Assembly: GCA_965219695.1 (NCBI GenBank)
Contig: CBDCOJ010000032.1
Coordinates: 517,747 to 581,746, forward strand
Source of the DNA: Candidatus Poribacteria bacterium
GTDB lineage: Bacteria; Poribacteria; WGA-4E; WGA-3G
Reading direction: 5' to 3'
DNA length: 64,000 bases
Part shown: positions 32 through 21,538 of the stretch, piece after piece
Position numbering within the stretch: the first letter of the stretch is position 1
Layout of the letters: the number at the start of each line of letters is the position of its first letter
Position numbers and translations under genes: made by a program
The notes under the pieces: generated by a model
Database searches by the model: none
What the model was told of the DNA's origin: nothing
What the model saw: the letters and a program-made list of their open reading frames with translations, nothing else

Positions 32-877
32 ATGGTCCTCGGTGCACATGTTTCCGCTTCCGGTGGAATACACAATTCTATCAAAAATGGTGACAACCTC
101 AAGTGTGACGCAATCCAAATTTTTCTTGCGAATCCAAACCGTTGGGAGTCAAAGCCACCAACAACGGATGTCATTGAAAAGTTTTGTTCAGCATGGGAAG
201 ACTCTCCTATTCGAGACGTGATTGTTCACGATATTCATCTTAGCAACCTTGCATCTCCAAAACAGGATGTGTTAGAAAAATCACGCAACCAATTTAAACA
301 GATGATGGAGCTTTCATATAAGACGGGAATTCGCCATATCGTTACACATCTCGGGGCACATCTTGGTGAGGGAGAAGAGTTCGGGTTGAAGATGTTAAGT
401 GATAGTTTTGATTTACTATTTGAAACGACAGATGCACCAGATGTCGTGGTACTGCTTGAAACAACAGCTGGACAAGGCACAAACCTCGGCTACTGCTTTG
501 AACATTTGCGCGATGTTATCGGCATGTCAAAATATCCAGATCGGTTCGGTGTCTGTCTTGATACCTGCCACGTTTTTGCCGCTGGTTATGATATACGTAC
601 TACAGCAGATTGTGACACAACATTTAATAAATTTGACGAAATTATCGGATTGGAACGACTAAAGGCATTTCATATCAATGACGCGAAATCGGAGTATCAG
701 AGCCGCGTAGATAGACATGAACATATCGGTGAAGGAAATATCGGCGCAACAGCATTTGCTTATATCCTTAACGATCCGCGCTTTGCACAAACGCCACTCA
801 TTATTGAAACGCCGAATATGAATACAATGCACGGAAAAAACCTAAAAGCACTACGCGGTTTAGTGAAAAATAATTGA
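32..877 (+). CDS. nfo: deoxyribonuclease IV (endonuclease IV, AP endonuclease family 2)
   Basis: 281-aa ORF. The TIM-barrel Nfo pattern (HxxY...metal-binding His/Asp/Glu) is visible in the translation. The gene starts about 30 nt into the window. Confidence 0.8.
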   Translation: MVLGAHVSASGGIHNSIKNGDNLKCDAIQIFLANPNRWESKPPTTDVIEKFCSAWEDSPIRDVIVHDIHLSNLASPKQDVLEKSRNQFKQMMELSYKTGIRHIVTHLGAHLGEGEEFGLKMLSDSFDLLFETTDAPDVVVLLETTAGQGTNLGYCFEHLRDVIGMSKYPDRFGVCLDTCHVFAAGYDIRTTADCDTTFNKFDEIIGLERLKAFHINDAKSEYQSRVDRHEHIGEGNIGATAFAYILNDPRFAQTPLIIETPNMNTMHGKNLKALRGLVKNN

Positions 878-893
878 CCATTCTGTAGTCTCA

Positions 894-1124
894 GTGTTTT
901 GTCCGCACCACTTAACGGAATCTAAGAAAATGCAGATCGGTCTATGGGAGGTAGCGTTTCTTATCCTCCTGCTTCTGGGAATAATATTGGTATCTCGGAT
1001 AGCAACGAATTTACAGACGAAACGCGTATGCCCTGATTGTGGATTAGCAATGCGCACATATTTACCAAGTTGCCCTTCATGTGGACGGAATTTGCCGTTA
1101 AAGGGTAAAAGAAAGTCAGAATAA
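894..1124 (+). CDS. small membrane protein with C-terminal zinc-ribbon (CPDC...CPSC)
   Basis: 76-aa ORF with one hydrophobic helix and a CxxC-x14-CxxC motif. It lies directly downstream of nfo. Confidence 0.35.
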   Translation: MFCPHHLTESKKMQIGLWEVAFLILLLLGIILVSRIATNLQTKRVCPDCGLAMRTYLPSCPSCGRNLPLKGKRKSE

Positions 1125-1304
1125 TTGAATTTATTTTCTTAATTATAAAGGAATTGGAATTTGGGAACGTTTTCCTTGACTATTGGGATACATTGAGGGA
1201 ATCTAACAATATAGGAAACACATCTATTCCGGTATGATTTTATAATAGTACTTAACATGCGGGCCTGTCCTACGGACAGACGCAATTTAGATAAGGAAGA
1301 GGAC

Positions 1305-2225
1305 ATGTCAACAAAAATTAAACTAAAAATTCAAGAGATGTCTTATCAGCACTCTGTCAAAACGAGGACAGATGTTCTGACAGAGCTTCAAGGTGTTAAA
1401 CAGGCAACGGTTGACCTTTGTAATAATGGGACAGTGATGAATTTGGACACTTCTCGTATCACCACAAAAAACATAACGAAATCAGGGTTTAAAGCGATAG
1501 AGAAATTTGAAAATATCTCGTTGCAATTTCTCAGTGCAGTCCTAATCCTATTTCTTGGCGTAATCGGCTGTTCCGATGTGCCTTACTCAGGTCCAATACT
1601 ATCGGTTGACCATGTTGACCGGTATCTTGACTCGGTAGGTGAAGATACAATCTGTCTCCAAGATGGATTTGATTCTATTTGCCTAAAAGAAATTCCGGGA
1701 GAATACGAAGCAGGCGACAACGTACCTATCGTCAACGTGCATCCAACAAGCCTTGTTTTTATGTTCTATTATGAAGACAGGCTGTTGTTGCGGGCGGAAA
1801 GATTAATGGATACCAGTCAGATTGTGCAAGAGATGATAGATTCTGGACAGGTCCAATCGCCAATTATCAATGGTACTAATGGAAATGTCCCAGAGGAGTG
1901 GGTAATCCAAATATACTATCCAGATTCATTTCCCGAAGCAAAACGAGGAAAAACACCCAATACCAGCGGATTTGACATTAAGGTCGCAAAGGGAATGAAG
2001 CAAAATATTAATAACCAACAAGAACTAAAAATAAAGAACTTTACCCAAATAAACGTAACTGATGGTACCCGAGGTATTCAATTCTCTATTGAAACTGAAG
2101 CTAAGGATATAACAATTCAAGTAGACAAATTAGTTTCTGGGTATACAGCAAAGTTCTATATCAATGCAGACGGCGTAGCATCTGATGAAGGTACTAATAT
2201 TCTTCAATTGATACCTCTACAGTAG
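1305..2225 (+). CDS. paralog A of tandem lipoprotein family (N-domain + WIVWIYYP C-domain, no linker)
   Basis: The ORF track frame is 1257..2225. ATG 1305 is preceded by aaggaagagg. A hydrophobic segment is followed by the lipobox LGVIGC-SD. The N- and C-terminal domains align with ORFs 2230..3396 and 3695..5341. The start is uncertain, with an alternative ATG at 1437. Confidence 0.6.
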   Translation: MSTKIKLKIQEMSYQHSVKTRTDVLTELQGVKQATVDLCNNGTVMNLDTSRITTKNITKSGFKAIEKFENISLQFLSAVLILFLGVIGCSDVPYSGPILSVDHVDRYLDSVGEDTICLQDGFDSICLKEIPGEYEAGDNVPIVNVHPTSLVFMFYYEDRLLLRAERLMDTSQIVQEMIDSGQVQSPIINGTNGNVPEEWVIQIYYPDSFPEAKRGKTPNTSGFDIKVAKGMKQNINNQQELKIKNFTQINVTDGTRGIQFSIETEAKDITIQVDKLVSGYTAKFYINADGVASDEGTNILQLIPLQ

Positions 2226-2247
2226 TCTCTTGGGAAGGAGTAACATC

Positions 2248-3396
2248 ATGGGAATGGGAAAAAGAATCGGTGGCATATTCCGTCAACGCTGTAGAAATAA
2301 AGTGGCGGATGCACTGGCAGAAAAGGCAAATGTTTTACGTGGAGGCGTGAACCTGCGTTGTAGTAATCAGGGAAGTTATCTTAATACATCGCGTAGTCCT
2401 AATTTCTTCCTTATAACGGCAATAATGAGAAAAGGTTTTGAAGCAGCCAAGCGAACCGTCCCTTTTTTACTAAGTTTGATCGTAAGTATTTTTATAGTAC
2501 TTTTAAACATAACCGGTTGTTCTGACAATCCTTATACAGGTTCAATGCTGCAACCCGGCGATGTAGATAACTATATTTTTTCACCTGGTGGCGGAAGAAT
2601 TTGTCTTACCAATGGGATAGAGACAGCTTGTGTAACACTTGTACCAAAAGGAAGAGATGGCACCTTACCCCTTATTTACATCTATTCATCAAGTATTGCA
2701 CATGTGTTCTATCATGAAGGTATGCCTATTATACGTGCAGAAAGAGAGACTGACACCTCAGGTATTATAAAAGAGATTACAGGAGGCACTGGCACACAAT
2801 CTGGCGGTGGTCCCGACAGCGGCATCGGACCTCGTGATGATGGCGGTCAACAACCCGGTGGTGGCACATCCGGCGGCGGAAATAACAACGGCAACGACGG
2901 AAACAACAATAATGGTGGCGGAAATAACAACGGCGGTACACCACCTACTGGTACACCACCCGGTGGTGGCCAAACGCAAGGGGATAATACTGGCGGTGAC
3001 AACAATGCTGGCACACCTCCTAACGATGGTGGTACTCCGCCTAATGACGATAGTCCTCCCAATAATATTGTTTCACATTACGTTTTTAGTAATCCCCCGA
3101 ATAACTTGTCCGGAGACGAATGGATAGTGTGGATATACTACCCGGATAACTATAGTGGGCCACGTGGGTTACCAAATTCCCCTGATGGATACGGGTTTAC
3201 TATTACCGTAGATGGTGGTGAAACAACAGAGTTTGCACAAGTTACTGGAGGCGAACGCGGATCCGGTGTTAGACTCGTCATTCGAACAAATCAGCCAGAA
3301 ACATATATCACCATAACATGGAATCCGCCCTATACTGATCGTTCCGCAACATTCACCCTTAAAAGTGATATTGACCTAAAAGATTATGACTTATGA
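2248..3396 (+). CDS. paralog B of tandem lipoprotein family (Gly/Asn/Pro/Thr-rich ~110 aa linker)
   Basis: ATG 2248 follows the RBS gggaaggag. The track start at 2230 is TTG in the same frame. Lipobox LNITGC-SD, conserved N-domain with the two-Cys motif RICLTNG..TAC, a G/N/D/P/T low-complexity region, and the conserved C-domain EWIVWIYYPDNY...ITITWNPPY. Confidence 0.7.
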   Translation: MGMGKRIGGIFRQRCRNKVADALAEKANVLRGGVNLRCSNQGSYLNTSRSPNFFLITAIMRKGFEAAKRTVPFLLSLIVSIFIVLLNITGCSDNPYTGSMLQPGDVDNYIFSPGGGRICLTNGIETACVTLVPKGRDGTLPLIYIYSSSIAHVFYHEGMPIIRAERETDTSGIIKEITGGTGTQSGGGPDSGIGPRDDGGQQPGGGTSGGGNNNGNDGNNNNGGGNNNGGTPPTGTPPGGGQTQGDNTGGDNNAGTPPNDGGTPPNDDSPPNNIVSHYVFSNPPNNLSGDEWIVWIYYPDNYSGPRGLPNSPDGYGFTITVDGGETTEFAQVTGGERGSGVRLVIRTNQPETYITITWNPPYTDRSATFTLKSDIDLKDYDL

Positions 3397-3694
3397 TCAG
3401 ATTCAAGGAATGTCCTGTTATCTCAAAGTATGCAGCAAACTATTAACAAGGTGAGTTTGATAACAGAATTCAATTTGGATTCCTCTAAATCGTGGAGTCA
3501 AGTTCACTTTCAATATTATTCAGGACAGATGTAAACTTGGTAAAAAAGAGTATATTTGGACACGAATCAAGTAAGCAAATTGGTCACTGGGTATACGGCA
3601 AAGTTCTATATCAATGCAGAGGGTGTCCCGTTTTGTGAAGTATAAACACCTTAGAATTGCTGCTGCTACGGTAACCTCTTAGAGGAGTAACACC

Positions 3695-5341
3695 ATGGCA
3701 AAAATAAAATTCGGAATCGGTAATATCTTCTGTCTCATAGCAGAAATAATGAAAAAAGGCATTGAAGCAGTCAAAAACCTCTTACCTCTATCACTAAGAT
3801 TAATAGGAGCAATCTTAATTATAATTCTTGGTATAACCGGATGTTCCGACAACCCTTATACAAGTTCAATGCTGCAACCCAGTGATGTAGATAAATATAT
3901 CTTTTCAAGTGGCGGCAGAATTTGCCTTACCAATGGGTTTGAGACAGCTTGCTTAACACTTGTACCGAAACGAAATAATCGCAATTTACCTGTAATCCAT
4001 TTTTATCCGTCAAGCATTGCCTATGTGTTTTATTATGAAGGTGTGCCTGTCGTACGTGCAGAAAGACCGATGGACACAACTGAAATAGTGGAACAGATAA
4101 CAGGCACAGGAACAGATACAGGAGGGGGAAATCAACCGCGCGATAGTGGCATTCGCGTGGTAGATATACCGCCTCCTGCAGATCCCCCACCTCCAGCGGA
4201 TCCGCCTCTACCTGAGACAGACGTTAGTCTTGATCCCGAAAAGACTGTTATTGACGTCAATCAAGATCCGCCTCTACCTGAGACAGACGTTAGTGGTCAG
4301 CAACCCGATAATACTGGTGGCAGTGGTCAACAACCTCGTGGCAATACTGGTGGCGGTACGAATCCGAACCCTAATTTTAATCCGTTGCCTATTCAACCGC
4401 CGACTGATCAACAACCCCCTGGCAGTCAGCAACCTCCTGGCGGTCAAACACCTGGCGACAACGGCGACGACGACAATAATGGCGGTCAAACACCTGGCGA
4501 CAACGGCGACGATGACAATAATGGCGGTCAAACACCTGGCGACGACGACAATAATAATGGCGGTCAAACACCTGGCGACAACGGCGACGACGACAATAAT
4601 AATGGCGGTCAAACACCTGGCGACAACGATAACAACGGTGATCAAACGCCTCCCGGTAATAACAATCCACCAGTCAATAACAATCCACCAGTCAATAACA
4701 ATCCACCAGTCAATAACAATCCACCAGTCAATAACAATCCACCAGTCAACACTCCGAACCCGAGTGGACACAACCCACCCGACAATGCTCTTTCACATTT
4801 AGTTTACGGGCACGCTGATGACGATCCTGCCCACCCTACACACGTAGATGGATGGATAGTGTGGATATACTACCCGCACAACTACGCTGAGCAAGGGCAT
4901 CCGCGTGGATTAGGCATTGAGCCGTTTAGTAAACAGACTGGTCCACGTTCAGTTGATGATCCCTTAACAGATTATAGAGATGATTACGGGTTTACATTGA
5001 GCGTAAGCGGTGGTGAGGTCACAGGATTTTCGCAAACTGAAGGAGACTGCATTGACGAACGTATCGGTCCTCCTACCTTTGAAATTGAAGACAACCGTGA
5101 GATGGGTCGAGACCAACGTGATGATATTGACGACACTCCATGCAGCGCAAGCGGGAACAACTATAGCGTTCAGCTCTTCATTAAAACGAATGCGGAAAAA
5201 ATAACGCTTACTATACAGTGGACTCACGGTATGTATGCTCCCCAGACTCAGAAATTCAACATAATGAAAGAAATTAGCATGAAAGATTGGGATGAGGCGG
5301 GGTACGACCCAGGTCATACTAACCAAGAAAGATGGGATTAG
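3695..5341 (+). CDS. paralog C of tandem lipoprotein family (~250 aa repeat-encoded linker)
   Basis: RBS gaggag then ATG 3695. Lipobox LGITGC-SD. N-domain about 80% identical to paralog B. The linker is built from 5 x GGQTPGDNGDDDNN and 5 x NNNPPV units. C-domain GWIVWIYYPHNY...ITLTIQW. Confidence 0.7.
   Translation: MAKIKFGIGNIFCLIAEIMKKGIEAVKNLLPLSLRLIGAILIIILGITGCSDNPYTSSMLQPSDVDKYIFSSGGRICLTNGFETACLTLVPKRNNRNLPVIHFYPSSIAYVFYYEGVPVVRAERPMDTTEIVEQITGTGTDTGGGNQPRDSGIRVVDIPPPADPPPPADPPLPETDVSLDPEKTVIDVNQDPPLPETDVSGQQPDNTGGSGQQPRGNTGGGTNPNPNFNPLPIQPPTDQQPPGSQQPPGGQTPGDNGDDDNNGGQTPGDNGDDDNNGGQTPGDDDNNNGGQTPGDNGDDDNNNGGQTPGDNDNNGDQTPPGNNNPPVNNNPPVNNNPPVNNNPPVNNNPPVNTPNPSGHNPPDNALSHLVYGHADDDPAHPTHVDGWIVWIYYPHNYAEQGHPRGLGIEPFSKQTGPRSVDDPLTDYRDDYGFTLSVSGGEVTGFSQTEGDCIDERIGPPTFEIEDNREMGRDQRDDIDDTPCSASGNNYSVQLFIKTNAEKITLTIQWTHGMYAPQTQKFNIMKEISMKDWDEAGYDPGHTNQERWD
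4439..4645 (+). repeat. in-frame 42-bp tandem repeat, ~5 copies (ggcggtcaaacacctggcgacaacggcgacgacgacaataat)
   Basis: Near-perfect head-to-tail copies are visible in the sequence. Copy lengths are 36/42/45 bp, all multiples of 3. Confidence 0.9.
4658..4747 (+). repeat. in-frame 18-bp tandem repeat x5 (aataacaatccaccagtc = NNNPPV)
   Basis: Five perfect consecutive copies are visible in the sequence. Confidence 0.9.
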
Positions 5342-5394
5342 GCAAAGAAAGTGTGGAAAGATCGAATCCTGCTCTTTTCTGAAGCGTGGTATCT

Positions 5395-6678
5395 ATGGAC
5401 ACAGCAAGAATTCAGGTCAAAGCAGGCAACGGCGGCAACGGGTGCATCAGTTTTCGTCGTGAAAAATTTGTGCCTCGCGGTGGTCCCGATGGTGGCGATG
5501 GCGGAAACGGTGGCAACGTAATCCTTGTTGCCACCCTTGGAATGAGCACCTTGATTGATTTACGTCATAACCCACGCCAAGTCGCTGAAAACGGTGGGCA
5601 CGGTGCTGGCAAGCAGCGGGACGGTGCTGATGGCGAAAACCGTATCATCAAAGTTCCCGTTGGTACTATTGTTAAAGATTTCGACACAGATGAGATGCTT
5701 GCCGATCTCACAGAACCTGATCAGACCGTTGTGGTAGCACGCGGCGGCATTGGCGGCAAAGGCAATTCTCGTTTTAAAAGCAGCACCTTTCAGGTGCCGC
5801 GCGTCGCTGAAAAAGGTGAACCCGGAGAAGAACGTGAGATTAGCCTTGAAGTCAAACTCATCGCCGATGTTGGATTAGTCGGTTATCCTAATGCTGGTAA
5901 ATCTACCCTCTTAGCTCGAAGTTCTGCCGCTACCCCCAAAATCGCTTCCTATCCATTTACAACCCTTATCCCTAATCTCGGTGTTGTCCGCATTGATCAA
6001 GAGCAGAATTTTGTGCTTGCAGATATCCCCGGACTGATAGAAGGCGCACACAAAGGCGCGGGATTGGGACACCAATTCTTGCGACATATTGAACGCACCA
6101 AGATGCTGATTCATGTCATTGACCTCAGTGCAACAGACGGTCGAGACCCCATCCAAGACTATGAACAGCTGAACCTTGAACTCGGTCACTACAATCCAAT
6201 GTTGACCGAGTTACCGCAAATTATCGCGCTCAATAAGGTTGATATACCGGAAGCGGAGGCGAATTTAGCACGCGTACAGGAATATTTCGGTAAGCGAAAA
6301 GTTTTTCCTATCTCTGCAATTACGGGTGAAGGTGTAAACGCTTTGATGCAACAGGCATACCGTTCCTTACAATATCTTGAAGCAAAGGCACGGGAACAAA
6401 CTGAAACAACAATCACTTTTGAACATGAATTACCCTCTGAACCGCGTGCCCGGTTTGAACTCCATAAAACTGAAAAAGGATTTGTCGTCACTGGTGATGA
6501 ACCGAGACGCGCTGTTGTTATGACCGACATGGAAAACGAACAAGCGTTAATGATGCTGTTTCGGAAATTAAAAAAGATGGGGGTAATAAACGCTCTTGCC
6601 CGTTCTGGCGTCAAAGAGGGTGATACAATTCAGATTGATGAATTCGAATTTACCTATAGTCCGAAAATGATTAAATAA
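5395..6678 (+). CDS. obg: GTPase Obg/CgtA
   Basis: Obg N-terminal glycine-rich fold (IQVKAGNGGNGCISFRREKFVPRGGPDGGDGGNGG). G-domain with GYPNAGKST and DIPG motifs, plus a C-terminal TGS-like tail. ATG 5395 is the likely start; the track frame begins at GTG 5386. Confidence 0.9.
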   Translation: MDTARIQVKAGNGGNGCISFRREKFVPRGGPDGGDGGNGGNVILVATLGMSTLIDLRHNPRQVAENGGHGAGKQRDGADGENRIIKVPVGTIVKDFDTDEMLADLTEPDQTVVVARGGIGGKGNSRFKSSTFQVPRVAEKGEPGEEREISLEVKLIADVGLVGYPNAGKSTLLARSSAATPKIASYPFTTLIPNLGVVRIDQEQNFVLADIPGLIEGAHKGAGLGHQFLRHIERTKMLIHVIDLSATDGRDPIQDYEQLNLELGHYNPMLTELPQIIALNKVDIPEAEANLARVQEYFGKRKVFPISAITGEGVNALMQQAYRSLQYLEAKAREQTETTITFEHELPSEPRARFELHKTEKGFVVTGDEPRRAVVMTDMENEQALMMLFRKLKKMGVINALARSGVKEGDTIQIDEFEFTYSPKMIK

Positions 6679-7983: not shown

Positions 7984-8271
7984 ATGAACATTCGTTTTTA
8001 TCAGGATCCAGAAACCGGATTGCCTCATATTTACAATCATAATGTCAACGAAGATGAGGTAGAACAAGTTTTACTAAACCCTGGTGAAGATTGGAAGGGC
8101 AGTAGAAACGCTCGGAATGCACTCGGGCAAACACAAAATGGACGCTATCTACAAGTTGTCTATGTTCAAGACTCGCAACCTAACAGTGTTTTTGTGATTA
8201 CGGCTTACGAATTAACAGGAAAGCCCTTGAAGGGATACCGGCGACGGCAACGAAGGAGTGGCAAACGATGA
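7984..8271 (+). CDS. BrnT-like (DUF497/COG2929) toxin of type II TA pair
   Basis: 95-aa protein. Its N-terminus (FYQDPETG...NHNVNEDEVEQVL) and C-terminus (RYLQVVYVQDSQPNSVFVITAYELT) resemble BrnT (FEWD..KHGVSFEEA...LLVVVHTER..IRIISAR). Its stop overlaps the start of the next ORF (atga at 8268). Confidence 0.5.
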   Translation: MNIRFYQDPETGLPHIYNHNVNEDEVEQVLLNPGEDWKGSRNARNALGQTQNGRYLQVVYVQDSQPNSVFVITAYELTGKPLKGYRRRQRRSGKR

Positions 8272-8477
8272 AGCAGAACAAATTTCCCCCCGGTTGGGAT
8301 GAAAAACGCGTGCAGAATGTCATCGCTTACTATGATCAGCAAACAGAGGATGAAGCTGTTGCTGAAGCTGAAGATGCTTTACAGAATGAACATAGCACGT
8401 TGATGGCGATTCCTACAGAATTGGTGCCTGCTGTTCTTGAATTGATTGATAGACATGTGGCTAAGGAACATTTGTAA
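8268..8477 (+). CDS. putative cognate antitoxin of BrnT-like toxin
   Basis: 69-aa acidic protein, translationally coupled to the upstream toxin-like ORF. Identified by position and size only. Confidence 0.4.
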   Translation: MKQNKFPPGWDEKRVQNVIAYYDQQTEDEAVAEAEDALQNEHSTLMAIPTELVPAVLELIDRHVAKEHL

Positions 8478-9822: not shown

Positions 9823-10674
9823 TCATCGACGCCGTCTCCGTTTTTGGGGGCGGGGTGCTACTGTTTCAGGTTCTGGAGTTTCGGATTCAATACCCACCTC
9901 CACTCTTGGTCGCTTGGACATCCACACCATAAAATAGATTCCAAAACAGAACAGGATAATACTGACAAGCTGCGGTGATGTCAACCACGACAAAGACGAC
10001 GTTTCAGGAAACACACGCGGTGTCAACCGCCAAAATTCTACGATAAATCTCTCCACGGCAAGCAGGACAAGACTTGCACCAAAGAGTAACCCTGGGATTG
10101 CCGCAAATTTTTTGCGTTGTGACCAGAGGATACCGAAGAACATAAATGAAATCAGGGTTTCATAGATAGGTGTCGGGTGAACAGGGACGTTTGTTGGAAC
10201 GGTGCCCTTTGGAAATGCCATTGCCCACGGCACATCGGAAGGCGGTCCGTAATCGCCATCACCTGCAAGCAAGCACCCAATGCGTCCAATACCATACCCA
10301 AGTAATAGGAGCGGTCCGATAACGTCAACAGTCGGAAGAAAAGGATTGGGCGAGCGATGGATAACCCAACTAATTGTCGCACTGCCACCGATTAATCCAC
10401 CATACCAGACTAATCCGGCCGGACTAAAGAGATCGCTTATTGAAAAATGTTCTACGATGAACAGTACATAATAGATTTTTGCGCCGAGTATCCCACCGAT
10501 AGCACCTGCAGCGACGATAGCAGTAGCTACCTCTCCTTGAAAACCCCTACGATTCAATTCACGTTGTATCATCACACTACATGTAATGAATGCAGTGGCT
10601 AACATAACGCCGTAGCTATGAATACCGATGGGAATAGAAAAGATCGTTCCCAAATCAATAAGCGTGGGATACAT
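9823..10674 (-). CDS. lgt: prolipoprotein diacylglyceryl transferase
   Basis: 283-aa polytopic membrane protein carrying the Lgt signature HPTPIYETL. C-terminal basic tail. Confidence 0.8.
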   Translation of the reverse strand: MYPTLIDLGTIFSIPIGIHSYGVMLATAFITCSVMIQRELNRRGFQGEVATAIVAAGAIGGILGAKIYYVLFIVEHFSISDLFSPAGLVWYGGLIGGSATISWVIHRSPNPFLPTVDVIGPLLLLGYGIGRIGCLLAGDGDYGPPSDVPWAMAFPKGTVPTNVPVHPTPIYETLISFMFFGILWSQRKKFAAIPGLLFGASLVLLAVERFIVEFWRLTPRVFPETSSLSWLTSPQLVSIILFCFGIYFMVWMSKRPRVEVGIESETPEPETVAPRPQKRRRRR

Positions 10675-12425: not shown

Positions 12426-13394
12426 ATGTCTCATTCAACCGAAACAAATGAAAAAAAACATCGGGAATACTTGTTTGCGCTTGCTTCAATTAAAGAAATT
12501 GGTGCGGTACGCCTCAAACGTTTGTTAACACGGTTTGGTAGTGTTGAGCGCATTTTTGATGCGGAGCTGGTTGAAATAGCACAGTTGCCACACTTCAATC
12601 CGATCTTAGCATCACGGATACTGACTGTACGCAATAGGTTTGCCGAATTGCGTCAGAAATTAGAGGCACTAAATAACCAAGGTATAGAAGTTATCTTTCC
12701 AGAAGATGCTGAATATCCTGCCGTTTTGAAATCAGTGCCAGACGCGCCAACAGTCCTTTGCAGAATCGGTGAATTATCTGAGATGAATGAACAGTGCGTT
12801 GCAATTGTGGGAAGCAACCGTCCGACAGTTGACAGTATTAATGTAACACTTGGACTTTCAATCCGCTTAGCTGAAGCAGGTTTTACAATAGTGAGCGGAC
12901 TTGCAAGTGGTATAGATACGAATGCACATTACGGCGCGTTAGGCGTAAATGGAACAACTATTGGTGTTGTATCAACTGATCTCTCGTCTATCTATCCGCC
13001 TGAAAATCATGAACTTGCTATGAAAATATGTGAAACCGGATATGTTTTTTCAGAACACCCGTTTCCTGCCTCACCGACACCTGCGAATCTTGTTTTACGC
13101 AATCGGATTATCAGTGGACTTTCTAAGGCAATAGTGGTAGTTGAAACCTCCAAAGAAGGAGGGGCAATGCACACTGCACGATACGCGCAACTACAAGACC
13201 GCCCTGTTTTGGCATGTCAGTGGAACTCACACAGTCAACATAGCGAAGGAACACGTCAACTCATTAGAAGTGGTGCTTTGCCTTTTTTACCCGACCAACT
13301 TGATACAGTTGTTGATATACTAACGCACCCCGAACGTCTTCAAAACCACATTATTGGAACCTCAATTGAACAGATGACACTCTTTGAACATTAG
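12426..13394 (+). CDS. dprA: DNA-processing protein DprA (Smf)
   Basis: Rossmann-like DprA core (VAIVGSNRPT...IVSGLASGIDTNAH...GAMHTARYAQ), 322 aa. Confidence 0.8.
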   Translation: MSHSTETNEKKHREYLFALASIKEIGAVRLKRLLTRFGSVERIFDAELVEIAQLPHFNPILASRILTVRNRFAELRQKLEALNNQGIEVIFPEDAEYPAVLKSVPDAPTVLCRIGELSEMNEQCVAIVGSNRPTVDSINVTLGLSIRLAEAGFTIVSGLASGIDTNAHYGALGVNGTTIGVVSTDLSSIYPPENHELAMKICETGYVFSEHPFPASPTPANLVLRNRIISGLSKAIVVVETSKEGGAMHTARYAQLQDRPVLACQWNSHSQHSEGTRQLIRSGALPFLPDQLDTVVDILTHPERLQNHIIGTSIEQMTLFEH

Positions 13395-13908: not shown

Positions 13909-14568
13909 ATGAAACTTTTTTTTAGAACCTTGGCAATAGTCATGGCAGCCTTGTTTGCCGTTTATATGGTCGGTTGTGGTGATGGGGAGACTGACCCCGA
14001 ACCTGAAGCTGCAGCGTTTGTAAGTGCTACACCCGCAAGTGGTGGTGAGCTCGCAGCAAACGGTACTATCAGTGTCACATTTGACAACAACCCGGGTGAA
14101 GTCACAGTAACTGGAGGCGGTACAGTCTCAACATCTGGTAAAACTCGGAATATCTCACCCCCCGCGGCTGGATATCCTGCTGGTGCCCTTGCTATTACAT
14201 TAACCTGGGTAAACGGTGATGGTAGCCATACACTAAACTATACCGTCGTCGCAGCAGATGAAGCCGCGCCGGAAGTCACAGGTAGTAATCCTAAAGATGG
14301 TGCTGAAGGCGTTGATCCCGCGAAGGTGTTTGAAGATGGTATAGAAGTTACCTTCAACGAACCCGTCACCGGAGATCTTATGCTGATGGATGGCGATGAT
14401 GATGTTGGTTGGACATCCAATGCGGATGGCAACAAAATCATGCTACAAGGAAATGCCGGCCAAGAACTCAGCAACGAAACCGAGTACGAAATTGCAGGTA
14501 CGGTCTCAGACGGTGCTGGAAACGAAGCCGAAATTAGCCTTACTTTTGTTACTAAAGCTAAAGAGTAA
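13909..14568 (+). CDS. lipoprotein with Ig-like (SbsA/Big_5-type) domains
   Basis: Signal peptide plus lipobox MVGCGD. Two beta-rich repeats of the form 'PA/GS...I.VTF..PV' are followed by an intrinsic terminator. Confidence 0.5.
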   Translation: MKLFFRTLAIVMAALFAVYMVGCGDGETDPEPEAAAFVSATPASGGELAANGTISVTFDNNPGEVTVTGGGTVSTSGKTRNISPPAAGYPAGALAITLTWVNGDGSHTLNYTVVAADEAAPEVTGSNPKDGAEGVDPAKVFEDGIEVTFNEPVTGDLMLMDGDDDVGWTSNADGNKIMLQGNAGQELSNETEYEIAGTVSDGAGNEAEISLTFVTKAKE

Positions 14569-15602: not shown

Positions 15603-15706
15603 CAAAACGCGCCTACCATTCGTGCGTAAGCCCTATAAATGTTTAAAAAATTCTTGTGGGAGCGGTTTCCAATAAGTGTAACAAAACGAGGAAACCGGCA
15701 AAAATT

Positions 15707-16645
15707 ATGAAACTGAAATGTAACGCTATACAACGTTTTATATCAGACTACATAGATGATACGCTTTCAGCACGCGACACTGCAAAGGTTGAAGCACATC
15801 TCCAGTTTTGTTTAGTATGTCAACATGAAGTCAATGCTCTCAAAAAGACGCGTGATCTTGTTGTTGATTTTTATGTTGAACCCGAGACACCTGATAGTTA
15901 TTTTCATCAATTTGAGGTAGAATTGCACCGTTGTATTGAAAATAAGGGGCCTATCCCGCTAAACCAGCGACTAAAGACCTCGTTGTTGCAGTTTACTTGG
16001 TCTTTGCTAACGCAACTTCGTCAAAGTTTTGGGCGATATAGCTTCATCAGGATGAATGCGTTACCGTTAGGTGTGCTTTTAGTGTTAATAACTACAGGAT
16101 TTATGGTAACGCATCTACTGAAACAGGAAGTTTCACCACCGCCTAAGGTATATCTACAACAGGGAGGTGAAGCAGCTCTATCCAATGAATCAGTTACTGT
16201 CAACGCAAAATCAAAGTTGCGGCAAGGCATTTACAATGATCGTAAAACCAAACGGAAGACACCTGAAGAAGTTAGTTCACCAACTCTCGCAGCAGATGCA
16301 GAGAAAGTAGGCTATTGGAAATTGACAGAGCCTTTAACTACTGAAACCGAAGGGCATATTATTGTTATGCATATCAGTAATGATCGTTCTGTTCCGAGTG
16401 AAGCGGCTGATTCTGAACTGATTGTTTATGCACAACCTGACATCTTAAGCAGGGAATCACCTTTACAAGAGGATAATTATGCCGCGCTTCCGTTGGAACT
16501 TCAAGTTGCCCCCTTTTCAGAGAAATACCAGCGAAAGCACCTTAAATTACCACGGTTTGTCAACAAATTCATGAACGTATCTTCAGAAAACGTATCTTCA
16601 GAAGTACTTACTATGCCAGAGCTCTACGACTTAAGTAAATTGTAA
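15707..16645 (+). CDS. putative zinc-finger anti-sigma factor (membrane-spanning)
   Basis: It lies immediately downstream of the ECF sigma gene. N-terminus HLQFCLVCQHE (HxxxCxxC zinc-finger anti-sigma motif), a central TM helix (LPLGVLLVLITTGFMV) and an extracytoplasmic tail. The start is taken at the internal ATG; the track ORF begins at 15656. Confidence 0.55.
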   Translation: MKLKCNAIQRFISDYIDDTLSARDTAKVEAHLQFCLVCQHEVNALKKTRDLVVDFYVEPETPDSYFHQFEVELHRCIENKGPIPLNQRLKTSLLQFTWSLLTQLRQSFGRYSFIRMNALPLGVLLVLITTGFMVTHLLKQEVSPPPKVYLQQGGEAALSNESVTVNAKSKLRQGIYNDRKTKRKTPEEVSSPTLAADAEKVGYWKLTEPLTTETEGHIIVMHISNDRSVPSEAADSELIVYAQPDILSRESPLQEDNYAALPLELQVAPFSEKYQRKHLKLPRFVNKFMNVSSENVSSEVLTMPELYDLSKL

Positions 16646-16825: not shown

Positions 16826-19800
16826 ATGAATCCAAGAATTTTGGGCATTATTGGTGGTCTCGCCCTTATCGTTGCTCTACTCTCGCCTTTTATGATGGGA
16901 AGTTCTAAAAAGGTAGAGCGACTCTATTTATCTGCTAAAGGACTATATGAACAAGCAGATTATGAAGGGGCGATAGCCAAGTATACTGAGGCACTTGAAG
17001 AGTCGACAAAACGCGGTGTGAAAACCGAAGTGATTGACAAAGATTTTACGACGCTTGCTAATTTTCAAATTGCTGTTTCTTATTCTCGCCTTGCTGAGCA
17101 GACAGGTGATGTTAACCACTATGATACAGCGCTTGAGTATATTGAAAAAGTGGCTCCTAACGCTACTATAGCTAAACATCAAGAAGGGTTAACATACCTC
17201 TGGGGACATATTCTATATAGAACGGAACAGTATGAACTTGCTGAAGCAAAGTTCACACAGTTGATTGATAATTTCCCTAACAGTCTACAAGTAGAGAACG
17301 CGTGGTATGCTATCGGTCAATTGAACTATAAGTTAGGAAATTACGAGAGTTCTCGAACCGCTTTTAACAATATTCTTGTCGGTTTTCCTAACTCTGAATT
17401 CAAGGATGACGCGCAGCTTCTCATCGCTCAATCCTTCCTTGACGAAAGCAATTACGAACAAGCTTACCCGGAATTTGATAAATTTGCCACTGATGAGTTT
17501 AAGAATTTTCCAGAACTGCATGCCGAAGCGATGTATAAAGCCGCTTTCTGTTTGAATCAACTTAATAGAGACGATGAAGCGATCAGTCGTTATACAAACT
17601 TCATTACACAATTTCCAGAACATCAGCTTGTTACGGCGGCATATTTCGACCAAGGCCATATTTATGCTAAACAGAAAGACTATGACAATGCACGCGTTAA
17701 CTTTGAGTTAGCACTCCAAAATACAGCAGACCGTGGCCTCCAATCCGAAATTCAGTTTGCCATTGGGGAAACATACTTTGATCAAGCTGACTATGAAAAC
17801 GCGATTGTATCTTACACAAAACTGTTAGACGAATATCCAGAGAGTGCATTCATCGGTGATGCAAAACTCGGTGTAGCCGACAGTCAGTTCCGATTGGATC
17901 GTTGGAGTGATGCTATCACTTCATATCAATCGGTTATTGAACACGAAAAAAGTGAAATGCAATCCGAAGAAGGTTCTGAACTCAGTTTAACACCTTATTG
18001 CTCTTTACAAGTTGGCGAAGCATTTTACAAACTTGGAACTAATCAACGCGATGCTGGTCAGATGCAGGAAGCGGATGCAACGCTTGAACTCGCGTTAGAA
18101 TGGTACCTGAAAACCGTTGACGATTTTCCGGAAAACCCTGTTGTGCCGCATGCATTATATGGTGCAATCTGGACATTGAATGACTTGGGACGCAAGGAAG
18201 AATTGGAGAAAATTGCGAGCGAGTTTATTGAAAAAAATCGTAACGATAACGAGTTTGATATCCTTGCTGCAGAGGTACAACTCCGCTTTGCTGACATAAA
18301 ACGCACCGAATTTAAGCAATATGTTGAAGCCGCAGAAGAATACGCTCAATTGTGGGAATACCGTCCACTTCCCAAATTCCATCTTATCAAGTTAATGGGC
18401 AAATTCTTTGAAGGTCGTTCCTACTATGAAGCCGCAAAACCTGAAGGTTATCAAGAAGGCGATACTACCACAAATTTCAATGCGGAATATCTCCAAAAAT
18501 CTGTTGGGGCATACCAAGACGCTATCAACATGTTTTCTGATGAATCTTTTCGTCCTGGCATTGAAGAAGGACGCTACCAAGACTTCTCAGAACGTATTGC
18601 ACAGGTTGAAGCATGTCTCATGAACGAAGCACTCTCACACGAGATGCTCGGGGCATGGGATATAGCGCGACAACGCTACGCTATGATTCCTGAAGCCAGT
18701 AACTACTATGAACGTGCACTTTTGCTCACCGCAAACAGTTATGTAAGGCAGGGGGACAAATCCCAAGCTATCACTTATTACAATTCAATAATGTCAAAAC
18801 TTGCAGACAAAAACAATCTTTCATTGGCAGAGATTAAGCTTGCAGATCTGCTGCGTGCTGAAGAACGGTTTGAAGAAGCGGCAGCCGAATACCAAGATGT
18901 TGTTGATGGTAACCCAACAGGTGAATATGCAGATGATGCGTTGTACTTTGTAGGTCTTTGCTACTATCATGCTTCATCGGAGAAACCTGAGCTTATTGAA
19001 AAAGCTGCAGAGGCTTTCAATAAGGTTGTGATGGAATACGCGGATAGTCCAAACGCCATTGAAGCCTATTATGGCTTGGCACTTGTTTACCAAGATGCTG
19101 CTAAAAAACATGGTGATACGACGAAGTGGTCCCTTATCGTTCAGACGGCAGACGCAGCAACCGAAAAATTCGCTGACAGTAGTGAAGAGTTGGTTCTCCA
19201 AACACTCGGACAAATTGATCTCATCAAAGCAACAGCCCTTGAAAACATAAACGCTGATGATATTGAAGGTCTTGTCGCGAGTCTACAGCAAGTTGTTAAT
19301 AACTCTGGAGCACGCGAAGATGCTCGCATCCGATCACAGCTTAAGATTGGGCATACTTACTACAGTAAAGAGCGTTTTGAAGAAGCTCTCGCTGCGTATA
19401 AATTATTCGTCGAAAAATTTCCGAATAGCGAAATTGCACCAACTGCACAATTTCAATCTGCTGTCTGTTATTACCAGATAGCCCAGAAGGCTAAAGATGC
19501 CGATGCAGCACAACTCGCGTATACCAATGCTGCCAGTGAAGCAGAGAAGGTTACCGAAATGACGGATAACGTTGATAACCTCATTAGCGCAAATTATACG
19601 CTCGGTTTATCAAAATTTGGGCTAAAGGATACGCAAGGTGCAATTGATGCCTTCAAGCAGGTCACTTCCTTTGAAGGTCAAACCGAGGACGAAAATCGCA
19701 AAAATCTCATCTCTCAAGCACACTCGCGACTTGCTGAATTATTCAGCAATGTTGGCAATCATGAGGACGCTGTGAAAGAGTATCAGTACATTATCGCTAA

Positions 19801-21538
19801 TACCGAAGATGATGACTTGCGAGGACGTTCCTATTTTGCGATGGCTTATGCACAAGACGAACATCTTAAGATGTATGATGATGCATTGACAAACTATCAG
19901 AACGCTATTCAGTTAGCTGATAATCTGGTGAAGGCACAGTCCTATTATAGGACAGGTTTGATTTATCAAGAAAAACTCAACAATCTTGATAAAGCATTGG
20001 AAGTTTTCCAAAACTTGATTGCCAACTATAGTACGGAACAGAATACCGGTGTTGCTTCTATGGTTGCTGACGCGAGTCTACGGCGTTCTGAACTGTTTGT
20101 GAAATTGGGGCGCTTAGACGAGGCTATCGCTGATTCAATAAGTTCAGTAGAAGCACTTAAGACAAGCCCGACTGCAACTGTTGCGCAAAAAGTTGCTGCA
20201 TTATATACCCTCGGATTTCTCTATTCAGATAAAGCACGCACCCACTATCCTGAGGATCTGCCCCAAGGATTTGATCTTAAGCCCTATATTGAAACGAGTG
20301 GGTTAGCCGCTTCTTCTTTCTTTGAAGTTAGCAAACTTGCTGCGCCTGTAGAGAAGGCGGATAAACAAACGGTCATTCCGTATGTACAAAATTCGCTTTT
20401 CCAAGCCGGCCAGATATACTATTCACTGGGTGCTGGATTTAAGCGGCGCGCAGAGTTGTTACTCGCCATTGATCCGCTTACAGAGTTTGTTAAATATGCG
20501 GATGCAGGTATATTCGCTGCCTCAAAGGATCTACCAGGAGACGTGGAGACTTCATTAACCTATTTAGCCTCTGCTAACTTTGACTTGGGGCGGATGCAAG
20601 TTGGATTAGACGAAGAGATGTCTCCGCAAGCTGTTGCTTATTTCGACGCTTCTGTTAAGGTTTTCAACGATCTTGTCAAACGCTATCCAAATGCCAAAGA
20701 TGCAGCACTCTGGCAGTATCAAGCTGGCGAAGCTTACTATACAACAGAGCAGTTTGAAAAAGCTATTGTTGAATATGATAAGGTCAGACGGGTTAATAAG
20801 ACGCATGAAAAAGCTCCTGAATCCTTATACGCTATCGCTACTTGTTATCAATTTCTCTCTGAAACAGCGAAAGACGCAGGCAATACAGATGCTGAAAAAG
20901 CGTTTCTTGACAAACTATTTGAAACAAACGAGATACTTGTCAAGGAATATAACAATAGCAAGTTCGCTGGCGAGGCGTTTATCAACATTGGTAATAAGCA
21001 CTATAACGCCGCTTTGGATCCAGAACTTGAGGCAACTGAGCAAATCGATCTCTTCCGACAAGCGATTGAAAACTACAAGCGAGCACTTGCAGCGCCCGGT
21101 CTCAGTGCAGAGTCCAAAAACACTGCAGAGGGTTTCCTTAATGAGACCGAGAGTTTTCTTGCACATAATGAATATAAGTATGCTATCACATCACTTGGCA
21201 AGGCTCAAAGAGCATCTGAAAAGTCTGACATTGAAGAAGCAATTGATCTCTTCAAAGCCATCACGAAAGCTTATTCAGAAACCAAGTATGGCGATCTTTC
21301 TTACGGTAAGTTAGGAGAAGCATATACAATGCTCGCGAATAAAGAGGAAAGCTATTATCCGTATGCATTGTATTACTTCCAGTTCTTGCCTAAGAAATAT
21401 GCAAGAATAGAACCTGCTGACTCTCAGGTCCAGGATGCAATTAACTACTGTATTCTTAAGTCTAATGAGATTCAAGCTTACATGAAGTCTAAGAATATTG
21501 AGCCACTTCAGGGAGAACCTGAAGATGGTAACGAATAA
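16826..21538 (+). CDS. giant tetratricopeptide-repeat (TPR) protein with N-terminal membrane anchor
   Basis: 1570-aa protein. An N-terminal TM helix is followed by tens of 34-residue TPR-like units (recurring A..Y..A...F..FP.S). A terminator hairpin lies downstream. Confidence 0.8.
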   Translation: MNPRILGIIGGLALIVALLSPFMMGSSKKVERLYLSAKGLYEQADYEGAIAKYTEALEESTKRGVKTEVIDKDFTTLANFQIAVSYSRLAEQTGDVNHYDTALEYIEKVAPNATIAKHQEGLTYLWGHILYRTEQYELAEAKFTQLIDNFPNSLQVENAWYAIGQLNYKLGNYESSRTAFNNILVGFPNSEFKDDAQLLIAQSFLDESNYEQAYPEFDKFATDEFKNFPELHAEAMYKAAFCLNQLNRDDEAISRYTNFITQFPEHQLVTAAYFDQGHIYAKQKDYDNARVNFELALQNTADRGLQSEIQFAIGETYFDQADYENAIVSYTKLLDEYPESAFIGDAKLGVADSQFRLDRWSDAITSYQSVIEHEKSEMQSEEGSELSLTPYCSLQVGEAFYKLGTNQRDAGQMQEADATLELALEWYLKTVDDFPENPVVPHALYGAIWTLNDLGRKEELEKIASEFIEKNRNDNEFDILAAEVQLRFADIKRTEFKQYVEAAEEYAQLWEYRPLPKFHLIKLMGKFFEGRSYYEAAKPEGYQEGDTTTNFNAEYLQKSVGAYQDAINMFSDESFRPGIEEGRYQDFSERIAQVEACLMNEALSHEMLGAWDIARQRYAMIPEASNYYERALLLTANSYVRQGDKSQAITYYNSIMSKLADKNNLSLAEIKLADLLRAEERFEEAAAEYQDVVDGNPTGEYADDALYFVGLCYYHASSEKPELIEKAAEAFNKVVMEYADSPNAIEAYYGLALVYQDAAKKHGDTTKWSLIVQTADAATEKFADSSEELVLQTLGQIDLIKATALENINADDIEGLVASLQQVVNNSGAREDARIRSQLKIGHTYYSKERFEEALAAYKLFVEKFPNSEIAPTAQFQSAVCYYQIAQKAKDADAAQLAYTNAASEAEKVTEMTDNVDNLISANYTLGLSKFGLKDTQGAIDAFKQVTSFEGQTEDENRKNLISQAHSRLAELFSNVGNHEDAVKEYQYIIANTEDDDLRGRSYFAMAYAQDEHLKMYDDALTNYQNAIQLADNLVKAQSYYRTGLIYQEKLNNLDKALEVFQNLIANYSTEQNTGVASMVADASLRRSELFVKLGRLDEAIADSISSVEALKTSPTATVAQKVAALYTLGFLYSDKARTHYPEDLPQGFDLKPYIETSGLAASSFFEVSKLAAPVEKADKQTVIPYVQNSLFQAGQIYYSLGAGFKRRAELLLAIDPLTEFVKYADAGIFAASKDLPGDVETSLTYLASANFDLGRMQVGLDEEMSPQAVAYFDASVKVFNDLVKRYPNAKDAALWQYQAGEAYYTTEQFEKAIVEYDKVRRVNKTHEKAPESLYAIATCYQFLSETAKDAGNTDAEKAFLDKLFETNEILVKEYNNSKFAGEAFINIGNKHYNAALDPELEATEQIDLFRQAIENYKRALAAPGLSAESKNTAEGFLNETESFLAHNEYKYAITSLGKAQRASEKSDIEEAIDLFKAITKAYSETKYGDLSYGKLGEAYTMLANKEESYYPYALYYFQFLPKKYARIEPADSQVQDAINYCILKSNEIQAYMKSKNIEPLQGEPEDGNE

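Follow-up and report, generated by a model that had tools for sequence, protein, structure and literature searches.

In LpoB and RcsF, lipoproteins whose long linkers span the envelope, a lipid anchor is followed by a disordered tether that places a small globular domain off the membrane. Stalked surface adhesins are known from invasin and intimin, in which a Big_1 rod carries a head, and from the collagen-like proteins Scl1, Lcl and the Pasteuria collagen-like proteins (PMC3022705, PMC6460258, 10.1101/2023.07.14.549037). CupA of Streptococcus pneumoniae is a membrane-anchored copper chaperone of cupredoxin fold with a helix N-terminal to the domain and no ectodomain or lipobox (PMC7558416), and the enterococcal sex pheromones are 7-8-residue peptides cut by Eep from the hydrophobic (h-) region of lipoprotein signal peptides (PMC4173765). 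Here we describe an array of three paralogous genes, A, B and C, in a 64,000-nucleotide stretch of Candidatus Poribacteria DNA (GenBank assembly GCA_965219695.1, contig CBDCOJ010000032.1, positions 517,747 to 581,746 of the forward strand), hereafter the window. Poribacteria are dominant sponge symbionts that have not been cultivated, and next to nothing is known of their cell envelope or of their interface with the host.

On balance, we consider the array to be probably a paired envelope lipoprotein module of the Poribacteria, made up of a short base protein (A) and stalked partners (B and C), in which an ancestral heavy-metal-associated (HMA) domain of CopZ type has decayed.

Array anatomy and the conserved gene pair

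The array consists of three consecutive open reading frames (ORFs) on the same strand (1257-2225, 2230-3396 and 3695-5341, +), with nfo (AP_endonuc_2) upstream and obg, proB and proA downstream. The original prediction, which was made from the letters of the window, had given the context as nfo ... obg-proB; this is correct and extends to proA. The best-supported starts lie inside the raw ORFs of the first two genes, at 1305 rather than 1257 for A and at 2248 rather than 2230 for B. The parts of the array are as follows (aa, amino acids).

1305..2225, + strand: gene A, short A-type, 306 aa, based on the ORF, a Shine-Dalgarno sequence and orthologues starting MSGKIKLKIQGMSCQHC; 100% match to protein P0001 and 90% identical to P0002
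1305..1502, + strand: decayed HMA (CopZ-like) domain of A, aa 1-66, GMSCQHC having become EMSYQHS
1503..1571, + strand: basic linker, 19-residue uncharged h-region and lipobox V-I-G-C of A; Cys codon 1569-1571; PS51257 core matched
1569..1844, + strand: N-domain of A, aa 89-180, with invariant Cys117/Cys126, DGF and RAERxMDT
1899..2222, + strand: C-domain of A, aa 199-306, a predicted Ig-like beta-sandwich opening WVIQIYYP
2248..3396, + strand: gene B, stalked B-type, 382 aa, based on the ORF and the Shine-Dalgarno sequence GGAAGGAG-N7-ATG
2248..2424, + strand: vestigial HMA-derived extension of B, aa 1-59, motif GIFRQRC, aligning to the HMA of A
2425..2520, + strand: signal of B, MRKGFEAAKR plus 21 uncharged residues and lipobox I-T-G-C; Cys codon 2518-2520
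2518..2757, + strand: N-domain of B, 63% identical to the N-domain of C
2758..3120, + strand: disordered G/N/P/T/D-rich stalk of B, 121 aa (G 29%, N 17%, P 12%), pLDDT <50 and no secondary structure
3121..3393, + strand: C-domain head of B, WIVWIYYP..., a predicted beta-sandwich
3409..3627, + strand: psiA, the stop-interrupted C-terminal-domain relic of a second A-type gene, from tblastn and nucleotide identity to A
3695..5341, + strand: gene C, long-stalked B/C-type, 548 aa, based on the ORF, AGAGGAG-N7-ATG and orthologues L005, L001, P0056 and P0132
3695..3844, + strand: internally deleted HMA remnant of C (MAKIKFGIGNI...), signal and lipobox I-T-G-C; Cys codon 3842-3844; 14-residue h-region; PS51257 core matched
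3842..4078, + strand: N-domain of C, from alignment, tblastn within the window and orthologue comparison
4079..4852, + strand: disordered P/N/G/D-rich stalk of C, 258 aa, from in-frame tandem repeats and composition
4853..5338, + strand: enlarged C-domain head of C, WIVWIYYP..., with a Cys-flanked insertion and DPGHT tail

Alignment of A, B and C gives a common hydrophobic segment, a lipobox followed by Ser-Asp, an N-domain of ~90 aa with two invariant Cys and RAER.MDT, and a C-domain that opens with W(V/I)(I/V)(Q/W)IYYP. By tblastn within the window, the N-domains match one another at E values of 1e-20 to 1e-46 and the C-domains at 1e-5 to 1e-13, and no further family copies were found elsewhere in the 64 kb. 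The three genes are thus paralogues sharing both end domains, as originally proposed, and the spacers, then put at 0, 110 and 250 aa, measure a similar ~20, 121 and 258 aa from RAER..DT to the W motif.

The paralogy of the proposed three-copy tandem array stands, but its simple layout does not, the window reading A-B-psiA-C. The relic psiA sits in the 298-bp gap between B and C, where it was found by tblastn with residues 240-307 of A (E 2e-6); its core at 3567-3626 is 87% identical to A at 2117-2176 over 60 nucleotides (E 2e-17), with 18 of 22 residues identical at the protein level. Because this relic lies in the B-C gap, we infer that the array is a duplicated pair minus its second A. Intact A-B-A-B arrays occur in two other loci (L016 and L060).

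A census with domain hidden Markov models (HMMs) covered all ORFs of 82 non-redundant loci, comprising 69 of type AB, nine ABB or ABBB, one ABAB, one BBA and two singletons. The conserved unit, a short A-type gene and, directly after it, a same-strand stalked B-type gene, is present in 80/82 loci, with spacers of 15-32 aa in the A-type and up to 519 aa in the B-type, and the distance from the A stop to the B ORF is mostly within +/-40 nucleotides. The pair occurs at one site as nfo-(zinc-ribbon ORF)-pair-obg-proB-proA and also at a second, independently syntenic site (L037-L040, L067, L070 and ~20 other loci), where a PQQ-like beta-propeller, an Mrp/ApbC-type ATPase and a small zinc-ribbon + PCP_red protein lie upstream on the same strand. 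The second-site neighbors are conserved and of housekeeping type, with no obvious functional link to the pair. A small zinc-ribbon protein stands directly ahead of the pair at both loci.

In the window, the ORF directly upstream of A (930-1124, +) encodes 64 aa with one transmembrane helix and a double zinc ribbon (CPDCG...CPSCG), to which Pfam DZR matches are weak only. It is almost identical in L001, although A there is only ~75% identical, and it is found at most nfo/obg loci and not at the secondary loci.

A word-indexed search returned 190 relatives, every named one from Candidatus Poribacteria, and an exhaustive HMMER search with a profile of the ectodomain only, run over 1.84 billion cluster representatives, returned just 160 proteins at E<=1e-3. 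Scanning one genome per GTDB species gave 96 loci, of which the 80 kept belong to Poribacteria metagenome-assembled genomes (MAGs), save three MAGs with the same synteny; genomes often hold two or three family loci, and the closest species representative is OZ241980.1. Judged from these protein, HMMER and GTDB searches, the family is restricted to Candidatus Poribacteria, in line with its original description as lineage-specific, and literature searches found no description of it. What emerges is a phylum-wide, two-locus paired module, putatively of the envelope, with two undescribed domains.

Ectodomains, stalks and the decayed HMA domain

The AlphaFold2 (AF2) model of A, built on a 96-sequence alignment, has a predicted local distance difference test score (pLDDT) of ~90 over residues ~140-306, where an N-domain core of three strands and one helix leads into a C-domain that is all-beta; within the N-domain the score rises from ~50 (aa 89-137) to ~90 (aa 140-180). 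In the model of B, the N-domain core (aa 130-178) reaches 80-90, the 105 residues of the stalk at 182-286 stay below 50, and the head at 290-382 is all-beta at ~87. The modelled B thus agrees with the predicted order of anchor, stalk and beta-rich head and places a base domain between anchor and stalk. The head fold matches only generic Ig-like or adhesin-like folds, no Pfam or NCBIfam family covers either ectodomain of A, B or C, and a profile search of all PDB sequences with the family gave 0 matches at E<=10; the earlier view that both ectodomains lie outside named families therefore survives Pfam, NCBIfam, PDB and fold searches.

The first ~45 residues after the Cys (CxxPYTGPxLTVDxVDRY...C..DGF..C) form a free-standing module in three relatives (P0201, P0207 and P0249), where collagen repeats and C-termini of unrelated kinds are fused to it. 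No other piece of the family is as widely shared.

Selection differs between the parts. The ratio of nonsynonymous (dN) to synonymous (dS) substitution rates, omega, lies at 0.15-0.19 for the N-domains and at ~0.5 for the head of B; for A it is 0.19, with 50-60% identity across the phylum. The C head is 75% (L005) and 43% (L001) identical to its orthologues, compared with 89-90% for the C N-domain. The original description of the family as rapidly evolving accordingly fits the stalks and the C-type head and does not fit A.

The stalks are rich in G/N/P/D/T/Q. That of C contains in-frame tandem repeats of 33 bp x2.9 (4199-4294), 42 bp x4.6 (4438-4628) and a perfect 18 bp x5.1 (4658-4749), and that of B has weaker 15- and 21-bp repeats, all units being multiples of 3 bp. 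Among close orthologues, the B stalk ranges from 121 to 150 aa, and the flanking domains are 89-95% identical with 0 gaps, compared with 64-79% and 16-85 gap columns in the stalks. Hypervariable, low-complexity stalks lengthened by repeats, as first proposed, are what these gaps and repeats show.

The best pointer to function is that other relatives fill the stalk position differently. Four of them (P0152, P0155, P0170 and P0253) have up to four Big_1/Invasin_D3 Ig domains there, P0152 together with a C-type head and DP.HT tail as in window C, and P0201, P0207 and P0249 have collagen triple-helix repeats after the first 45 N-domain residues; a Pfam scan found neither Big_1/Invasin_D3 domains nor Gly-X-Y collagen repeats in A, B or C. 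Because three unrelated extended elements occupy the same position, that position probably works as a spacer projecting the distal module, and the adhesin-like stalk and head originally suggested gain support from the relatives. A spacer filled in three ways, by a disordered repeat, an Ig-domain rod or a collagen rod, gives a handle on presenting something at a set distance from the membrane.

M-x-K-x-K-L-K-I-x-GMSCQHCVKTVTD is the start of the canonical A-type protein, which contains a Pfam HMA domain scoring 55.9 bits in the orthologue P0012 against a Pfam cutoff of 24.8. Intact GMSCQHC is found in orthologues of both A and B, and the HMA of the stalked partner is intact in several genomes. 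Decay of CopZ-like HMA domains has produced the N-terminal extensions of all three window proteins; the original prediction had correctly placed these extensions upstream of the hydrophobic helix and had left them anonymous. Their metal motifs read EMSYQHS in A and GIFRQRC in B, with none in C, so that GMxCxxC is absent from all three. The Pfam scan gave no PF00403 match for A, B or C at E<=1, and the NCBIfam CopZ score of 28.3 bits is below the curated cutoff of 95. The copy in A still fits the ferredoxin-like beta-alpha-beta-beta-alpha-beta fold of HMA, the B extension scores 23 bits against the family HMA HMM, and the alignment places an internal deletion in the HMA of C. The window copies are not classed as HMA, since the defining metal motif is absent.

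The decay is concentrated in this part of the gene. Between A and the 90%-identical P0002, ~20 of 30 differences fall in the first 72 residues, with the G, C and C of the motif replaced, and in the window lineage dN for A is 0.171 in the HMA vs 0.024 in the ectodomain, a 7-fold difference. Lineages with an intact CxxC have a median omega of 0.11 in the HMA vs 0.18 in the ectodomain, which makes the HMA their most constrained part, and A and B paralogues within one genome share 70-80% identity in the HMA and 48-57% in the N-domain. Intact CxxC motifs are almost wholly confined to the nfo/obg locus. Because intact copies are strongly constrained and the window copies have lost their ligands, we infer that the HMA was functional ancestrally and is being abandoned in the window lineage. 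The literature yielded no description of an HMA domain ahead of a lipobox.

Relative to its closest relative (L004), the HMA region of A also has a raised dS, 0.387 vs 0.129 in the ectodomain (three times), which may reflect recombination, gene conversion or small-sample noise.

Gene starts, lipobox and membrane anchoring

Shine-Dalgarno sequences precede the upstream ATGs of all three genes, as GGAAGGAG-N7-ATG at 2248 (B), AGAGGAG-N7-ATG at 3695 (C) and AAGGAAGAGGA ahead of the ATG at 1305 (A), so the original remark that a ribosome-binding site and ATG lie well upstream of the hydrophobic helix was correct. Internal Mets at 2425 (B) and 3749 (C) would give classical short signal peptides; we rejected them as starts, since they have no Shine-Dalgarno sequence and the L001 orthologue of B has no Met at the corresponding position. 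P0004 and P0123 are the B protein itself, called from other starts. Compared with two species (L005 and L001), the upstream extension of B has an omega of 0.43-0.58 and no frameshift. Because Shine-Dalgarno sequences stand at the upstream ATGs only and the extension shows this constraint without frameshifts, we consider the extensions to be translated.

The lipoboxes are V-I-G-C(SD) in A and I-T-G-C(SD) in B and C. The Cys is invariant in 96/96 aligned members and the preceding Gly nearly so, and a lipobox of the form [LVIFMA][ASTVILG][GAS]C is present in 162/168 family genes. We tested the PS51257 core, {DERK}(6)-[LIVMFWSTAG](2)-[LIVMFYSTAGCQ]-[AGS]-C, which is matched by A and C and by 28/28 HMA-intact genes. 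Basic residues stand directly ahead of the h-region, which has 19 (A), 21 (B) and 14 (C) uncharged residues, all within the range of about 7-22 for this region, and a median of 14 in HMA-intact members; at 14 residues it is, by its length, signal-peptide-like and short for a stable anchor. Many relatives without the extension are textbook prolipoproteins with the Cys at residue 15-35, for example MKKLLFAIFVISVSVIGC, and decay or loss of the HMA leaves the signal as it was. The window also contains lgt (PF01790, E 3e-48) at 9826-10674 (-), 4.5 kb downstream of the array and at the same position in L001. Because of the invariant Cys, the prevalence of the lipobox, the short h-region, the extension-free relatives, the unchanged signal and the nearby lgt, we favor a prolipoprotein with a domain-bearing n-region, and the HMA-intact precursors have the look of prolipoproteins whose signal n-region includes a folded domain in the cytoplasm.

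The module may then work as follows. The conserved unit is a short, putative base protein (A-type) with a stalked partner (B-type), duplicated here to A-B-A'-C, with A' since decayed to a relic. Each protein would begin with an N-in signal, a basic stretch and a hydrophobic segment of 14-21 residues ending in the lipobox Cys; the ectodomain would be translocated, the Cys presumably lipid-modified by Lgt, and the precursor cleaved before the Cys by LspA. The predicted mature product is a lipid-anchored, membrane-proximal N-domain with a disulfide-type Cys pair and a beta/alpha core, followed by a spacer and an Ig-like head. With a spacer of ~20 aa, the head of A would lie at the membrane, and the disordered spacers of B and C (121 and 258 aa; 48-519 aa in relatives) would keep theirs off it, their length shifting by slippage of the in-frame tandem repeats. 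A and B/C may act together through their homologous N-domains, with the heads binding an envelope or external ligand. Ancestral A and B would each have carried a functional cytoplasmic CopZ-type Cu(I)-binding HMA ahead of the signal, which is being lost here (A without ligands, B a vestige, C internally deleted) under continued purifying selection on the ectodomains.

Several observations count against this account. AF2 gives poor models (pLDDT ~50) of the first ~45 residues behind the Cys in A and B, the proposed A-B interaction draws on invariant adjacency and shared N-domains, B departs from the strict PS51257 core through an Asn at -4, and the position of the Cys is such that standard predictors would call A and B signal-anchored. 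In the best-surviving alternative, unlikely in our estimation yet a serious one, the proteins are uncleaved type-II (N-in, C-out) anchors, the ectodomain is physically coupled to a cytoplasmic tail formed by the HMA or what remains of it, for instance for metal-dependent signalling or clustering across the membrane, and the Cys serves otherwise. From the Shine-Dalgarno-supported starts, 49-90 residues precede the Cys, which at 89 (A), 91 (B) and 50 (C) lies outside the PROSITE range of 15-35, as such an anchor would have it; yet this Cys and the Gly at -1 are invariant or nearly so over ~170 genes, HMA-intact ones included, and always in a lipobox context. An uncharged run of 19-21 residues in A and B, and the single long helix that AF2 predicts over residues 53-90 of B, would suit a membrane anchor, but the median h-region of HMA-intact members is short for one. 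The extension is translated and weakly constrained, and the omega of 0.11 for the HMA in intact lineages is easiest to explain if the domain stays attached; however, repeated independent loss of the HMA gives textbook prolipoproteins with the signal unchanged, which suggests that a signal peptidase II (SPase II) signal was already working, and purifying selection on the ectodomain persists after HMA decay, which suggests that the two functions are separable. The original choice between lipoprotein and type-II anchor is, on these sequence features, probably a false one, an N-in signal being combined with a bona fide lipobox so that each is partly right.

A strongly conserved CopZ-type domain before a perfect lipobox raises the question of whether a lipoprotein signal can carry a folded, functional cytoplasmic domain, and of the fate of that domain after cleavage. 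It is conceivable, if rather doubtful, that the precursor, in its ancestral and still common form, is two proteins in one, the n-region of its lipoprotein signal peptide being a folded, maintained CopZ-type Cu(I) domain and one gene giving two products. Processing by Lgt and LspA would then yield an envelope lipoprotein and a released HMA with a 14-residue hydrophobic tail, which would be membrane-associated or, after a cut by a signal-peptide peptidase, a soluble copper chaperone. Such a chaperone would be made in fixed stoichiometry with the envelope protein, or the arrangement would form a copper-dependent gate on its export; the window lineage would have dispensed with the HMA product, and the signal would be a functional bacterial signal peptide of a previously undescribed sort. 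The family offers natural controls in its intact, decayed, truncated and absent HMA versions.

The same HMA could instead point to a copper or heavy-metal trafficking or resistance module, in which it delivers Cu(I) to a metal-binding ectodomain in the periplasm or acts as the Cu sensor of that ectodomain, with the window copies degenerating after loss of the function; we think this improbable. The Cys pair is the only His/Met/Cys feature conserved over both A and B/C ectodomains, HVH being absent from B and C, and neither syntenic locus has cop, cus or mer genes beside it. The metal site is missing in most lineages and at every secondary locus, yet the ectodomains there are constrained, and stalks, Big_1 arrays and collagen rods are foreign to metal chaperones.

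It is very improbable that the array is evolutionary debris beside obg, its genes being paralogues in decay or without function, or artefacts of gene calling in low-complexity DNA. The array does hold a true pseudogene relic, its HMA parts are decaying and its repeats spawn spurious ORFs both in other frames and on the opposite strand; but A, B and C are intact ORFs preceded by strong Shine-Dalgarno sites, the N-domains and the B head show the omega values given above, orthologues of A, B and C of the same layout exist in several species, and every repeat unit is a multiple of 3 bp. A reading as anti-sigma factors was rejected, since the N-terminal domain is HMA and not zf-HC2 and neither syntenic locus has a sigma gene next to the pair.

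Mechanically called ORFs of 70-190 aa lie over the stalk repeats (2758-3127 and 4230-4802) in other frames or on the minus strand; they are by-products of low-complexity, stop-poor sequence and not genes. A promoter and terminator scan of 800-5500 stayed at the level of shuffled sequence, with no terminator-like site on the plus strand, a result that would fit read-through to obg but is no proof of it.

Further genes surround the array in the window. Two small overlapping ORFs between proB and proA (7984-8271 and 8268-8477, +) encode a weak DUF4258 match and an unannotated partner, and an NTP_transf_2/HEPN gene occupies the corresponding gap of L002, so the gap looks like a hot spot for toxin-antitoxin-like inserts. 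Also on the plus strand are genes for a CopC + Big_5 protein (13909-14565), the sole copper-related gene seen near the array, a zf-HC2 anti-sigma factor (15656-16642), a 1570-aa TPR protein (16826-21535) and DprA (12426-13391).

Comparison with known systems

Like bacterial prolipoproteins (PS51257), the window proteins have a basic n-region, an h-region of 14-21 residues and a lipobox with an invariant Cys; unlike them, A, B, C and the HMA-bearing relatives have an n-region extended by 30-75 residues, which make up a folded HMA domain or did so in the past, with the Cys at ~50-98. The ancestral N-terminal domain resembles HMA/CopZ in its beta-alpha-beta-beta-alpha-beta fold and GMSCQHC Cu(I) site, but it is fused ahead of a signal, lipobox and extracytoplasmic protein, being neither free-standing nor on a P-type ATPase, and its CxxC is lost in the window. 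The HMA-plus-helix piece, cleaved or not, would be, like CupA, a cytoplasm-facing copper-binding domain tethered by a single helix. The enterococcal pheromones are the only precedent we found for a signal peptide that is functional after SPase II cleavage, the candidate by-product here being a folded domain of ~65 residues. LpoB and RcsF have a much shorter tether that begins right after the Cys, whereas here a folded N-domain comes first and the tether is 120-520 aa; they have no sequence or fold relationship to the window proteins.

The window proteins appear to work like stalked surface or envelope proteins (invasin and intimin, bacterial collagen-like proteins, and long-linker lipoproteins such as LpoB or RcsF) but belong to none of these groups, each defining domain tested being absent from the window copies. 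The lipobox, the HMA and the stalk-plus-head plan are already known; the Poribacteria family and the arrangement of an HMA before a lipobox appear to be new, no precedent having been found in the literature. The window copies carry neither the Big_1 arrays nor the collagen repeats that their own relatives use as a spacer, and they share with the stalked adhesins the order of an anchor, an extended repeat-variable spacer and a C-terminal globular polymorphic head.

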